Part shown: piece by piece, positions 11,183 through 17,228 of the stretch
Numbering within the stretch: the first letter of the stretch is position 1
Layout: every line of letters begins with the position of its first letter
Assembly: GCA_021773235.1 (NCBI GenBank)
Contig: JAJFKL010000021.1
Coordinates: 132,651-196,650, forward strand
Length of the DNA: 64,000 bases
Reading direction: 5' to 3'
DNA from: Gammaproteobacteria bacterium
GTDB lineage: Bacteria; Pseudomonadota; Gammaproteobacteria; Eutrophobiales; Eutrophobiaceae
Notes under the pieces: generated by a model
Databases searched by the model: none
What the model was told of the DNA's origin: nothing
Seen by the model: only the letters and a program-made list of their open reading frames with translations
Position numbers and translations under genes: made by a program

Positions 11183-11509
11183 ATGGGATTTGGAATACTT
11201 GAAATTATTATTGCCATCGTTTTATTTTCTACGGGCATTTATATATTTTTCAAATTTATTGATGGATTATCTTGGTTGTTCAGTTGGGCAAAACGCCACA
11301 TCAAAATAATTCATGCCCAAATAGATTATGTCCGTCTCAAAATACTAATATCTACAATTTGGGTAATATTTTGTGTTTGGTATTGGGCAGATCAGTATCA
11401 TGCAAGTTTCAGACGAATTGATGAATCAATATTAATACTATCTGTCCCGTTATTAATATTGTGGTCTGTAAATCTGTATAAATGGATTATTAGAAAACCA
11501 GCTATTTAA
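11183..11509 (+). CDS. small membrane protein (108 aa, ~3 TM)
   Basis: Hydrophobic ORF (ILEIIIAIVLFSTGIYIFFKFI..., ILISTIWVIFCVWYW..., ILILSVPLLILWSV); converges on the giant gene with an 8-nt overlap. Confidence 0.45.
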   Translation: MGFGILEIIIAIVLFSTGIYIFFKFIDGLSWLFSWAKRHIKIIHAQIDYVRLKILISTIWVIFCVWYWADQYHASFRRIDESILILSVPLLILWSVNLYKWIIRKPAI

Positions 11510-14500: not shown

Positions 14501-17228
14501 CCAGTAATTTACTGGCACCGGTGCCTGTTTTGCCGGTCCTTAATTTATTCATCTCCGTATTAGACATTGGAAGTACACCAGAGACACGATGGCGATTATC
14601 TAAAAGTAGCAAGCCTGTTTCATCGTCAGGAAAGTATTTTTCAACAATATCTCTTGCCTGTTCTGGACTTGTTACCGCTTCAACATCTTTTTTGTTTTTA
14701 ATTCTTCTGTATTGTCTTTCTGTTATGGGTACGTCTATTGAAGCATTAGATGTTCTATCCGTTGGCTTAATAGATGAAGCGCCTGAATATCCATCAATGT
14801 ATAAATCTCCAGTTTTGCTACCTGGTGCAACTGTTAGCATTGCTTCAACTGTTATGCCTGTACCTTTAAGTAAAGAGCTTAATTCATTAGTTAAAGCATG
14901 ATCGGATTCTGATTGTTGTTGAACGCCGCTTGGATGATTGTGTGCGAACCAGACTTTTGATGCATCAGTAACAGCATGAATGGCACCAAGTAGTTTACTA
15001 AATTCAGTCATAGCAGCATCAGAAGTACCGATAACATGGCGAATTATTTCTAATGGCTTACCATCTTTATCAACAACCAGTGCAATTAGCTGTTCTTGGG
15101 CTTTCTTCCTGATAGGTGCGACAATACTTAACGCATCATCGGCATCATTTACGATCGATATATTTGATCGGAATGACTCAACAGGCACGTTATTTACCTG
15201 TGCAAAACGTCTTACTTGTCGGCTGGCTTCTTGGTCTGATTTTTCTTCTGACTCGATATTGAATAGGTCGATCTGTCCTTCCCCGTTGTCGAGGTCTGGT
15301 TCGTTGACAACCTGGTTATCTTGTCCGTTATTTTGTAGTGAGCCGGTATCTCGGTCATAACTACTAATATTGTCATTTACTGATGAATTTTCAAGCTCTG
15401 ACCATCCTTCAATCTTATTGTATTCTTGTTCATCAAATATCTGTCCCGCCATATCAGCATATTCATCGGTGACATCCAGTGGGGCACCATGTTTTCGAAT
15501 ATCCCTTGCACGTTGCAATTGCTCTTGAGCATGATCAACACGTTCTTCACGTCCACCTTGAATATCATCCAGCATGAATTGAACAGCGCGTGATTCTTTA
15601 GCATAGAGTGTTTCACCGGCAAGTGCTTTTTTAACACCTGATCGAACATCACTAACACTGACTCGCATATCAGGATCTTGGTTCATACGTTGGAACCATT
15701 CAGGATTTTGGCTTGGTGTACGTTGAACCGGAGTTTCTTTATTACGTGGTAAATTTTCATTTCCAAGATCAAATTCACCACCAATTAAAGCCATATTACC
15801 TTCATCTTTAGACGTTAATTGTGTGGCTAAATGGCTTAATTCTTGTCGATAATCTTCACGTAAAATACGACTATCATCCAATCCTTTAGGCATACGCTGA
15901 TCGCGTGAATGTTGAGCCTGTAAGTTCTCTACATTTTCCGGACTTGGCGGGACCTGCTTATAATCAATTGTGCCGTTTTGTTGTTCACCACGTGCACCAA
16001 GGCTTGTATCAGGTATAAAGGCCGACTTCTGATTAACTTTTGTTGGTACAAAATCAACACCATTACTGTACTGATTCAATGATTCAAGCTGAATATCAGG
16101 CGCTTGTGGCACATTAGGCACAAAATCAATGCTATTGTCTTGGCCGGTGGAATTTACACCATTCAGCAATTCAGGATTAAATTCAGGTTTTGGTACAGGC
16201 CCTTTATCAAAATTAATACCGTCAACGTAACCTGGATAACTATTCATTGCCTGATCTGGAAATGATGTTGGTACCGATGGTTTATTTACATTGGGCACAC
16301 CTTCTTTTTGCTCATTATAAATATTTACCATTTCTTCAATTATGTTGTTTTCTCTACTTCCTTGAATGCCTCCAGTAGCAGTGCCAATAGGTGCACCCAT
16401 ACCACCACCAGCGACTAACCCAGACAAGGAAGCATCAGCAAATTGTTCTGGAGTAAGTTTATCTATAACGCTACTAGCAAGCAGTTCTATAGGCTCCTGA
16501 ATCGCTTCTGTGCCACCTTCAGCAATAGCACCTTTTACACCGCCTTCGGCCATTCCACGTCCTGTACCAATACCTTTAGAAACAGGATTGATTAATTTCT
16601 CTGCACCAAACTTTTCAAGTACTGCCATCATTGTTGCAGCTGCACCACTAATTCCAATATCATCAATATTTGGATCTTGTCTACCGTGTGCCTCTGCCCT
16701 GTTTTCACTTATCTCACCGGTTCGTGACAAGACGTATGCAGGTAACTGAGTCAATGCAGCGGCCATATCTGGAATACTTTTTACACCTTGCTCTGCGATA
16801 AAAGGCAGCACTGTACCAAGTGATGGATCGTCTTTTACATCTTGCCATGATGCTCTTTCATCATATCCAAGATCTGTTTCACGCATTGCTTCACCAAATT
16901 GGGATGTGGCAAAATCTTGCCTTTGAAGATCGTCTCTAAATCTAATCCCATCACCATCGATATAAACACCATAGTTCGAACCCGGTAAATTATTGGCGAT
17001 TTGTCCTGGAAGCTGAGTAAACCCACCAACAAGATCCATTGCCCGTTCACCAGCACCACGCAATGCATTACCAAAAAAACCACTTTGGTTTTCAACTGGA
17101 ATATCTTGTGATGTTTGTGAGCCTAAATTAAATGACGGATCAGACTCAATGGCCGTTTGAATTTGTACTGGTGACATATCATCAGGGAAATTGACAACAC
17201 CAATATTAGGGATATTAACGGTAGGCAT
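11502..17228 (-). CDS. Polyvalent giant protein (1908 aa) with RadC-like JAB/MPN domain and zincin-like metallopeptidase motif
   Basis: VWFAHNHPSGVQQQSESDHALTNEL is the RadC/JAB HNHPSG...S..D signature. It is followed by a second, degenerate RadC-like stretch lacking the motif. VMLHEAIGHNG is an HEXXGH zincin motif. The rest is long, Gly/Ala-rich and helical. AAGGA RBS. Confidence 0.8.
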   Translation of the reverse strand: MPTVNIPNIGVVNFPDDMSPVQIQTAIESDPSFNLGSQTSQDIPVENQSGFFGNALRGAGERAMDLVGGFTQLPGQIANNLPGSNYGVYIDGDGIRFRDDLQRQDFATSQFGEAMRETDLGYDERASWQDVKDDPSLGTVLPFIAEQGVKSIPDMAAALTQLPAYVLSRTGEISENRAEAHGRQDPNIDDIGISGAAATMMAVLEKFGAEKLINPVSKGIGTGRGMAEGGVKGAIAEGGTEAIQEPIELLASSVIDKLTPEQFADASLSGLVAGGGMGAPIGTATGGIQGSRENNIIEEMVNIYNEQKEGVPNVNKPSVPTSFPDQAMNSYPGYVDGINFDKGPVPKPEFNPELLNGVNSTGQDNSIDFVPNVPQAPDIQLESLNQYSNGVDFVPTKVNQKSAFIPDTSLGARGEQQNGTIDYKQVPPSPENVENLQAQHSRDQRMPKGLDDSRILREDYRQELSHLATQLTSKDEGNMALIGGEFDLGNENLPRNKETPVQRTPSQNPEWFQRMNQDPDMRVSVSDVRSGVKKALAGETLYAKESRAVQFMLDDIQGGREERVDHAQEQLQRARDIRKHGAPLDVTDEYADMAGQIFDEQEYNKIEGWSELENSSVNDNISSYDRDTGSLQNNGQDNQVVNEPDLDNGEGQIDLFNIESEEKSDQEASRQVRRFAQVNNVPVESFRSNISIVNDADDALSIVAPIRKKAQEQLIALVVDKDGKPLEIIRHVIGTSDAAMTEFSKLLGAIHAVTDASKVWFAHNHPSGVQQQSESDHALTNELSSLLKGTGITVEAMLTVAPGSKTGDLYIDGYSGASSIKPTDRTSNASIDVPITERQYRRIKNKKDVEAVTSPEQARDIVEKYFPDDETGLLLLDNRHRVSGVLPMSNTEMNKLRTGKTGTGASKLLEEIHSTGAMAMIAKATYLPTSENIAAFGRDIKIRMLDSFVKDLDGSYYSTAERGTNNPHEGKYYSRAKVKPATILKANNLKKIIAGISKKWKNAPKVEIVDSANDLLGSDHPLDTEGALIDGTIYLVADNLPNQKRAVEVMLHEAIGHNGVNTLLGDYANTFFDQMASDLGNDTFADIAEDYELDMDNEADRRTAAQEYVARTAESGKPDVWLDRLIGKIREWLRSVMPHMKFNDADIKTLIEKSKKFVEEGTIEPGELGVQYSRRSGVKTGRKQQGYISDEGSGKKPPENISDIDKGKITDLFHGKAKPVADMAYAIGKIFYFRPVQVIRDINTPAAKKLADMIYKEERNEYREIEGIDLIQNRTKMEGEYGQRMDDIIESLSGRLGIKKTDTEAIVKGLNSENGSVPKRLEKEAQAVRKLLDDVHQYMVDAGVEIGYEKNYFPRVYDTDNLLNPIMKKRFIKLLTDHGYSTPESTYNKIIGSDQGIYDPERMSERVQVDNHGTVYVQRAMGIEGRASKTSQEKSRSIDIEYDLLKPFLVNELDSVLARYIHHSTRRAEYSRAFGDKEQQLNSIVKEIIDDYEAGKVDSSISMKEAVNTIYDLADSLQGRGPRFESEILNKASRLVSSLETMIHLPLVAMASFPETLAPAVHGGTLKSLPSYARGIGDGILEATAAADKFITGKRHIPKSELRRDAERMGVITVRSLQEAWTRRWGGHSGRVTSKFMRATMLEQLTNIQRLVAFDMARHVIKDYSVEIEKGKNVDQNLMELKDFGLDEADMKLVAKGEVSQALNDKIDFAAQRWAQKVITDPNEATTPPIMKHPGWNLVFQFKRFITVFSNTFLKSMLQNIGRFPNWEDKARFVVPMIVSIATAYYAQYWRDWLKYGDANPAFRKLQDSNGRIYDAVDRAGFTGDLTTIYQFANPYRFGHSNWKGRLYNLLGPAAGDISRVLTSLDRDTTKKSQREKQAKEVVNMIPGVNATHFTRKPAQKMVENLIK

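Follow-up and report, generated by a model that had tools for sequence, protein, structure and literature searches.

The question raised by this locus is what a protein of 1908 amino acids (aa) does on an island that has the looks of a small phage satellite. The locus lies within a stretch of 64,000 nucleotides (the window) from a Gammaproteobacteria bacterium (assembly GCA_021773235.1, contig JAJFKL010000021.1, positions 132,651 to 196,650 of the forward strand), and the coordinates given here are those of the window. The giant open reading frame (ORF) occupies positions 11502..17228 on the minus strand. Judged from its sequence, the giant protein is best described as a gp16-like ejection scaffold, in which an effector cassette of approximately 900 aa is placed between an N-terminal domain (N-domain) and a C-terminal module (C-module). 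The reading preferred here, to which we assign a probability of about one half, is that it is an effector-loaded ejection protein supplied by a satellite of a podovirus, where the satellite would resemble the phage-inducible chromosomal islands (PICIs).

The reality of the ORF was considered at the outset. The ORF, whose coordinates include the stop codon, runs without interruption, and an AAGGA ribosome-binding site is located 10 nt upstream of its ATG. It is the last gene in a co-directional array consisting of int, an AlpA-like ORF, a DnaD-like ORF, terS, a 127-aa ORF and the giant gene. The earlier note on this DNA had described a single uninterrupted 5.7-kb ORF downstream of terS, and this description is borne out, with terS at 17632..18249 and the 127-aa ORF in between. 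Independent assemblies of two public biofilm-metagenome runs, X1 and X2, cover the ORF with zero differences, where the X1 contigs span 6370-13584 and 13571-18198 and the X2 contig spans 12608-16146. Therefore, the giant ORF is not an assembly chimera. The break in the X1 assembly at 13571-13584 coincides exactly with the boundary between the cassette and the C-module (aa ~1215-1219) and is bridged by the X2 contig; other sequences in the community that share one side of this boundary may account for it. A loose end at 11931, which had hinted at another element having this 3' end in common with the giant gene, was not seen again when the site was inspected more closely.

The C-module (aa ~1215-1908, 11505..13586, minus strand) is an all-alpha module of the gp16-like ejection or internal virion protein type. 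It matches phrog_6958, annotated as 'virion structural protein', with E=5.8e-29. When 1.84 billion representatives (50% identity level) were searched exhaustively using HMMER, 1190 proteins carrying the C-module were obtained at E<1e-3. Of the 150 matches listed, almost all have the module extending to the C-terminus, whereas the N-terminal parts are variable and the proteins range from ~210 to 4000 aa; some of the proteins carry PBECR2 or ART-PolyVal. By tblastn, the C-module was found in 121 GenBank phage records, mainly of PaP3/LUZ24-type Pseudomonas podoviruses together with Vibrio and Pseudoalteromonas phages, where the proteins are annotated as 'virion structural' or 'constituent'. This large family, which has no Pfam entry and comprises ~1190 representatives, could thus be annotated as a podovirus gp16-like ejection module.

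The fold of the C-module was predicted using AlphaFold2 with an alignment of 48 sequences. The model is all-alpha, with a predicted local distance difference test (pLDDT) value of 81.8 and a predicted TM-score (pTM) of 0.84. Compared with the predicted structures of BFVD, it gave Foldseek probabilities of 1.0 and TMq values of 0.55-0.68, and the matched proteins are named structural protein (KPP25), internal virion protein (VP2), internal protein D (BB8) and internal core protein (RSB3, Ab05). The further BFVD matches include a large polyvalent protein associated domain protein and one phage protein containing RadC-JAB. Other members of the family in BFVD are annotated with SLT, lysozyme-toxin or matrixin modules.

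The correspondence with a known virion protein is not limited to the C-module. The product of PaP3 orf19, a 1056-aa 'constituent protein' whose gene closes the structural operon, behind a 507-aa gene and smaller ones, aligns over aa 380-1005 with aa 1244-1856 of the giant protein (BLASTP E=3e-16, ~22% identity), and this alignment is colinear with a weak match in the N-domain. In the Bruynoghevirus Pa223, a close relative of PaP3, three ejection proteins have been described by cryo-electron microscopy together with LC-MS (10.1101/2025.06.11.659172). These are gp53 (~1000 aa, gp16-like), gp54 (505 aa, gp15-like) and gp56 (gp14-like); their genes adjoin, and all three occur in the virions, where gp53 was detected by LC-MS (10.1101/2025.06.11.659172). 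Judging by protein size and the order of the genes, with no direct comparison of the two, PaP3 orf19 would correspond to Pa223 gp53. The giant protein shares with PaP3 orf19 and, if this correspondence holds, with Pa223 gp53 the C-module homology, the weak colinear N-domain and the all-alpha fold, and both are virion components, orf19 by annotation and gp53 by LC-MS; however, they are ~1000 aa in length and have no RadC or HExxGH cassette, whereas the giant protein has 1908 aa. Their genes follow the gp14-like and gp15-like genes in complete phages, whereas the giant gene lies near terS with no other virion gene.

The genomic positions of other relatives point in the same direction. The related protein P0004 is encoded in the ejection-protein slot of a podovirus late operon, after the portal, coat and Phage_stabilise genes, P0052 in the same slot after the capsid, SU10_adaptor and Phage_stabilise genes, and P0019 in that slot at the end of a similar late-operon array. 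The short relatives consist of the N-terminal region and the C-module with no insert, as seen in P0015 (920 aa), P0132 (1076 aa) and PaP3 orf19, and the C-module of P0015 is 52% identical to that of the giant protein. The colinearity with PaP3 orf19, the shared ejection slot of the relatives and the short relatives lacking the insert are the reasons for describing the giant protein as a scaffold with a cassette. The cassette, bounded at aa ~290 and ~1215, contains a disordered linker, a RadC/JAB domain, a possible dead JAB-like domain and an HExxGH...E module.

The N-domain (aa ~40-290, 16359..17111, minus strand) corresponds to the conserved N-terminus of giant polyvalent proteins of phages. 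It is 39% identical to aa 30-286 of P0002 (E=2e-37) and also matches P0003-P0007; P0002-P0007 are giant phage proteins, most of which carry LPD38 and other domains of polyvalent proteins. The matches to the proteins without the insert are weaker, with E=5e-4 for P0132 and E=0.012 for PaP3 orf19, where aa 186-277 of the giant protein align with aa 228-312 of orf19. The C-module was also considered as a counterpart of the LPD38 region, and this was rejected because the profile-profile comparison using hhalign gave a probability of 0.3, so that no relation was detected. Since the C-module family shows no profile relation to the LPD38-type giants, the giant protein joins the N-domain of one lineage to the C-module of another. 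Near the N-terminus, at aa 12-28 (17145-17195, minus strand), the motif VNFPDDMSPVQIQTAIE bears an apparent likeness to VNAPDDATDDQVLSYVQ, with which P0015 has its N-terminus marked, and a looser one to the way in which the LPD38-type giants begin. This motif may be a common incorporation signal.

The earlier note had regarded about 900 further residues simply as helical sequence. The C-module is indeed all-alpha; however, these residues are not anonymous, as aa ~1217-1907 form a virion module and aa ~40-290 the conserved N-domain. The same note had named identification as a known structural protein, such as a tape measure or a tail fibre, as the outcome that would speak against its interpretation. 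A tape measure or tail fibre was rejected, because the PHROG, tblastn and fold matches are all internal virion or ejection proteins. A known virion class was thus found, but it is one whose members are ejected into the cell, and for this reason the identification strengthens the idea of injection instead of refuting it. The suggestion that the protein is packaged or injected with the island receives strong indirect support, in that its C-terminal 690 aa are homologous to ejection or internal virion proteins of podoviruses for which presence in the virion is documented.

The first enzymatic module of the cassette is a RadC/JAB domain at aa 696-796 (14841..15143, minus strand). It matches Pfam PF04002 with E=1.6e-14 and a score of 54.3 bits against a cut-off of 22.1, and it also matches phrog_10276 (E=2.6e-12) and the NCBIfam RadC models (E=5e-10), the latter with scores far under the equivalog cut-offs. 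In the translation, the JAMM motif HxHx7Sx2D is complete (H763-N-H765-PSGVQQQ-S773-ES-D776), and the upstream Glu of the site is probably E712. The best PDB match of a low-confidence model of aa 661-1175 is RadC of Chlorobium tepidum (2qlc), with a Foldseek probability of 1.0. The RadC/JAB signature recognized at the outset is therefore confirmed by profile, motif and fold match, and the module is apparently an active metalloenzyme, as far as its residues indicate. In contrast to stand-alone RadC, the domain is embedded in a 1908-aa virion-type protein and lacks the N-terminal helix-hairpin-helix region. We know of no established function of RadC.

The presence of RadC in a giant protein of the phage type is unusual. 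None of the ~165 related proteins that were compared has a detectable copy, although one BFVD phage protein, at rank 31, combines RadC with the same C-module fold. In a survey published in 2017 by Iyer, Burroughs, Anand, de Souza and Aravind, the polyvalent proteins with RadC were only those of conjugative elements (PMC5512222).

A second RadC-like stretch lacking the catalytic motif had also been claimed. It is found at aa ~850-965 (14334..14681, minus strand), where the metal ligands are absent, and the predicted secondary structure, H-E-E-H-E-H, resembles that of JAB, but with pLDDT <50. The Pfam RadC match is below the threshold (E=0.018, 15.4 bits against the cut-off of 22.1) and partial, covering the last 34 profile positions (88-120), and BLASTP gave no significant similarity to the first RadC domain. 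It is possible that this region is a dead JAB-like domain, but a second RadC is weakly supported.

The HExxGH block (aa ~1005-1165, 13734..14216, minus strand) is the other enzyme-like part of the cassette. Homologous blocks occur at differing positions in P0002, P0008, P0009, P0010, P0018 and P0025, with 33% identity to that of P0002, and H1052, E1053, G1056, H1057 and E1107 are invariant in all five aligned blocks (the giant protein and four other giant proteins). In the AlphaFold2 model of the block (pLDDT ~60-86), a helix and three strands are followed by a long helix that carries HExxGH and then by one that carries the Glu. The zincin-like peptidase core of polyvalent proteins has been described as a three-stranded sheet, an HExxH helix and a Glu on the next helix (PMC5512222), and the motif and predicted topology of the block agree with this layout. 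The HEXXGH zincin motif pointed out previously therefore holds as regards the invariant residues and the predicted topology, but not as regards profile or fold matches: no Pfam match, including MPTase-PolyVal, was obtained at E<=10, the PDB profile search gave nothing, and Foldseek against the PDB gave no zincin, where the model is of low confidence outside the block. From the conserved residues and the model, the block is apparently a metallopeptidase-like module that recurs in polyvalent proteins.

The part of the cassette preceding RadC is a linker at aa ~291-690 (15159..16358, minus strand), which is of low complexity, rich in N, Q, D, E and P, and disordered; no homologues of it were found in Pfam or among the ~165 related proteins.

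Several unrelated effector or enzymatic domains within one very large polypeptide characterize polyvalent proteins, and here RadC, the HExxGH block and the virion domains are combined in this manner. The giant protein resembles the phage-type polyvalent proteins (PMC5512222), represented by the LPD38 giants P0002-P0007, in being giant and multidomain and in the N-domain and the HExxGH block; the genes of these relatives lie in late virion operons, and the proteins are predicted to be injected with the DNA (PMC5512222). The difference is that the giant protein has no Pfam LPD match (E<=1) and no MPTase-PolyVal match, whereas P0002-P0010 carry LPD1, LPD5, LPD37 and LPD38, all four of which are present in P0002. 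Accordingly, the classification as a polyvalent-type protein stands, with an N-domain and an HExxGH block in common with the LPD-bearing P0002 and a bona fide RadC; by its predicted function and architecture, not by Pfam LPD content, it is a polyvalent protein.

The combination of an enzymatic module with a large helical body of the ejectosome also recalls T7 gp16 (internal virion protein D), in which the enzymatic module is a lytic transglycosylase. The likeness extends to the BFVD models of internal virion protein D and internal core proteins of T7-like and phiKMV-like phages (probability 1.0, TMq ~0.5-0.6). The giant protein differs from T7 gp16 in that its C-module gives no sequence or fold match to solved structures, in that its enzymes are others, and in that these are inserted internally, whereas the enzyme of T7 gp16 is N-terminal.

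The setting of the giant gene was examined by determining the boundaries of the island. The tRNA-Gln(CTG) gene at 592..665 (plus strand; ARAGORN; Rfam tRNA, 57.9 bits) contains in its 3' 47 nt (619-665) the attL core, and attR at 21173..21219 (plus strand) is a perfect 47-bp copy of this tRNA 3' end, with 0 mismatches and 0 copies expected by chance, marking the right boundary of the island. This exact 47-mer occurs twice in the window. The perfect repeats therefore define an island of 20,554 bp, of which the giant ORF makes up 27.9%, in agreement with the 28% estimated beforehand. Just inside attL, at 722..743 (plus strand), there are two tandem copies of TGTTGGYAGT, and two tandem copies of TGTTGGCAGT are found inside attR at 21012..21033 (plus strand), 3 bp upstream of the int start codon. 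TGTTGGYAGT has four matches in the 64-kb window against 0.24 expected, all at the two ends of the island as tandem pairs 12 bp apart, and the pairs are probably arm-type binding sites of the integrase or sites of a recombination directionality factor.

The array begins with a tyrosine integrase of 453 aa (19648..21009, minus strand), which matches Pfam Arm-DNA-bind_3 (E=4e-13) and Phage_integrase (E=1.8e-12) and phrog_1 (E=5e-46). On the same strand, it is followed by a 164-aa ORF (19150..19644) with no Pfam, PHROG or NCBIfam match, a 65-aa ORF weakly resembling AlpA/excisionase (18861..19058; phrog_66 E=9.5e-5, Pfam Phage_AlpA E=0.004) and a 177-aa DnaD-like candidate replication protein (18370..18903; phrog_186 'DnaD-like helicase loader' E=1.4e-6, no Pfam match above the cut-off). 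The small terminase subunit TerS, of 205 aa (17632..18249, minus strand), matches Pfam Terminase_2 (E=1e-32) and phrog_51 (E=3e-29). The 127-aa ORF (17249..17632, minus strand) overlaps terS by a single base (17632), and its end lies 20 nt before the giant gene ATG; it has no Pfam, PHROG or NCBIfam match, and it was rejected as a TerL fragment or a homologue of PaP3 orf17, as it shows no similarity to either. At aa 107-163, in the C-terminal part of TerS, NCBIfam adenylate kinase matched with E=2.4e-5 and 24 bits against a cut-off of 262, which is probably a chance match or a common small fold.

The remaining half of the island (848..10651) is occupied by cargo: an HTH+M78 protein (PD-Lambda-2_B-like), a HigB-like toxin, a TIR/ThsB-like protein, an HEPN+LprI protein and unknown ORFs. 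From these matches, the cargo looks like anti-phage defence. Searches of the island using Pfam, PHROGs and NCBIfam detected neither capsid or portal genes nor a large terminase, and no genes for tail or lysis.

The contents of the island bear on the suggestion, made in the earlier note as an alternative, that the element moves by a different mechanism. In its fullest form, the giant protein would be a cytoplasmic polyvalent protein of a non-phage mobile element, acting independently of virions, and the island would move otherwise, e.g., by conjugative mobilization. No relaxase, oriT-type or type IV secretion system genes were seen in the island, and because of the lack of conjugation or relaxase genes this mechanism is unsupported. 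In addition, both terminal domains of the giant protein are of the phage type, the C-module family is that of a virion protein, TerS adjoins, and in one BFVD phage protein RadC is joined to the same C-module fold. We consider this explanation extremely improbable.

The int/TerS array, the integration at tRNA-Gln, and the lack of capsid, portal, TerL, tail and lysis genes are the reasons for regarding the island as a PICI-like phage satellite, and the satellite-like appearance noticed at first sight is confirmed in looks by the int, att, TerS and cargo. PICIs have been described by five core components: an integrase with att sites, a regulator (AlpA, MerR or Stl), a primase-replicase, a capsid-morphogenesis gene and TerS; they typically carry no other phage structural genes (PMC10085698). 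The island has the integrase with att sites and TerS, and for the regulator there is the 65-aa ORF, whose match is below the threshold (Pfam AlpA 17.4 bits against 21). It resembles PICIs and the marine TerS-bearing satellites (VEIMEs, PICMIs) in being integrated at a tRNA gene, in encoding an integrase and its own TerS beside AlpA-like and replication-like ORFs, in carrying defence-like cargo, and in lacking capsid, TerL, tail and lysis genes (PMC10085698; PMC9618062). It differs from PICIs in carrying a gene of a structural class, i.e., the ejection-protein homologue.

The same array allows a rival explanation, in which the island is the remnant of a temperate podovirus that has lost the genes from terL through the tail and ejection genes, and the giant protein is the stranded ejection protein of this phage. 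All three TerS relatives looked up are phage genes with a large-terminase or terminase-sized gene directly next, which terS precedes, and the giant gene of the relatives closes the same late operon; because of these two positions, one internal deletion could join terS to the giant gene. Temperate growth with integration at tRNA genes is possible for PaP3-type phages, and no sister satellite was found, which also speaks for a remnant. However, no debris of terL, portal or coat pseudogenes lies between terS and the giant gene, but only the intact 127-aa ORF, and the giant gene has its own ribosome-binding site. The early region is absent too, as int and terS are separated by only three small ORFs, and repressor/cro, Q and lysis genes are lacking. 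Furthermore, the island has kept its 5.7-kb ORF, its integrase, the arm repeats and the att site at each end in intact form, and half of it is defence-like cargo, which is typical for satellites. The intact att sites with arm repeats, the intact ORF, the tight gene spacing and the compactness of the island favour the satellite, and we regard the remnant as unlikely, although it is the main rival.

For the satellite reading, a sequence of events can be proposed. The analysis shows which domains are present, that the protein is homologous to ejection proteins of virions, where the island ends and which genes it contains; the packaging of this particular protein, the dependence on a helper and the targets of the enzymes are inferred. 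The island would be excised and replicated during the growth of a helper podovirus having a compatible set of ejection proteins, and the island TerS would steer the helper large terminase to the island DNA. The giant protein would enter procapsids via the scaffold domains in common with the gp16-like protein of the helper. In the next infection, it would exit through the tail ahead of the DNA and join the trans-envelope channel as its inner-membrane part, and the RadC and peptidase modules would thereby be placed in the recipient. The peptidase may free the modules, as has been proposed for polyvalent proteins generally (PMC5512222), and the target of RadC may be nucleic acid or a host factor, its action helping the island to become established. 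We tentatively suggest, as a possibility held with less confidence than the satellite reading itself, that the satellite customizes the injected proteome of stolen particles by providing its own gp16-like ejectosome subunit with RadC and a self-processing peptidase, and that helper progeny may be sabotaged too.

Such sabotage could also be the function itself. In this rival explanation, the giant protein is a weapon of interference or defence, a decoy ejection protein that is built into virions together with the proteins of an infecting podovirus and, through the RadC and peptidase modules, renders these virions self-destructive or unable to infect, thus protecting the host population instead of serving the transfer of the island. 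The scaffold is homologous to the ejection protein of the phage itself, the giant protein is nearly double the ordinary ~1000-aa version, the island has other defence-like genes, and satellites are known to interfere with helpers (PMC10085698; PMC9618062). On the other hand, no precedent was found in the literature searched, the TerS located upstream in the same array argues for a function in packaging or transfer, and the make-up of the cassette matches bona fide polyvalent proteins of phages, which are thought to act in the recipient (PMC5512222). Interference as the function is therefore rather improbable, but it is compatible with delivery by a satellite, and both could hold.

The following results weigh against the satellite reading. 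Among 5.8 billion proteins, the whole giant protein has no relative exceeding 39% identity over 13% of its length, and those island proteins that were checked by exact look-up form singleton clusters. No helper phage was found, and the closest relatives of TerS, among all known TerS proteins, are <=41% identical to it. The island is a single metagenomic instance, as the genome, viral and metagenome collections searched yielded no sister: searches via terS in viral contigs and via the integrase in 185k species genomes gave none, and terS gave one weak match in JGI metagenomes. The C-module alignment detected three loci in genomes, two of which were inspected and both of which are phage late-operon contexts, and 15 remote phage contigs in IMG/VR.

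Further points of this kind come from the comparison with known systems. The island has no gp14-like or gp15-like partner genes, and the giant gene comes after terS and the 127-aa ORF. No PDB relatives of the C-module were found by sequence, profile or fold, and because of this the link to T7 gp16 is drawn from the annotation of predicted models and from a weak alignment by the Pa223 authors. The zincin assignment is without profile or fold support, and the AlpA and DnaD assignments are sub-threshold. In contrast to PICIs, no capsid-morphogenesis (redirection) gene was recognized in the island using Pfam and PHROGs, and no primase-replicase: Pfam and NCBIfam gave neither a primase nor a helicase. 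In classical PICIs the array is arranged differently, whereas in the island all array genes including int are co-directional.

In the assembled contigs of the source metagenome, the depth of the island is approximately that of the chromosome, showing no sign of excision or amplification, which also belongs to the points above. In assembled contigs, attP and attB are indistinguishable from attL and attR because the 47-bp repeat collapses in the assembly graph. In sample S2 (run X2), the chromosomal flank (window 1-460) is mostly a variant rich in single-nucleotide polymorphisms with a depth of ~14-18, whereas the island (668-20000) has ~4-5; from this difference in depth, the island-bearing strain is a minority in this sample. 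In sample S3, the island is nearly absent.

Known satellites seize the packaging of the helper (TerS, Rpp), change how large the capsid is (Sid, Cpm, TcaP) or make capsids of their own (cf-PICIs), and to our knowledge no satellite supplies the proteins that accompany the DNA on its way into the next cell. The full-text searches found no papers tying phage satellites to polyvalent or internal virion proteins, and satellites and ejection proteins appeared together only in passing co-mentions. An ejection-protein gene on a satellite-like island therefore appears to be unprecedented in the collections and literature searched. If the satellite reading is true, the island would be the first satellite known with an ejection-protein gene, a strategy apart from terminase redirection and capsid remodelling. 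The particles carrying the satellite would deliver establishment or anti-defence enzymes chosen by the satellite, which would add a new layer to the conflict between satellite and helper. RadC would be placed where a role early after DNA entry can be tested. The protein would also represent a natural swap of an effector cassette into an ejection scaffold, with bounds at aa ~290 and ~1215 that are useful for engineering protein delivery by phage particles. The whole case is drawn from one metagenomic instance and from homology alone.

Some minor observations were made on the cargo and on the surroundings of the giant gene. At 1736-3161 (minus strand), the HTH+M78 protein matches PD-Lambda-2_B with E=6e-35, and the start of its gene overlaps the 3' end of the gene for the HigB-like toxin. 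The TIR/ThsB-like protein has 153 aa (4762-5223, plus strand; Pfam TIR_2 E=3e-20), and the 318-aa protein at 8467-9423 (plus strand) contains weak RiboL-PSP HEPN and LprI domains. In the region of 5000-9000, the G+C content is 0.41-0.44, compared with ~0.35 on either side, and four co-directional ORFs (180, 358, 173 and 187 aa) are located there, for which neither Pfam nor PHROG nor PADLOC gave a match; this block may be an uncharacterised cargo system. Two very hydrophobic ORFs on the plus strand, one of 140 aa at 10229-10651 and the other of 108 aa at 11183-11509, converge on the 3' end of the giant gene, where the latter overlaps the stop codon of the giant gene by 8 nt. Downstream of the giant gene, the minus strand contains an ORF of 67 aa at 10768-10971 and, at 10738-10760, a strong hairpin resembling a terminator.

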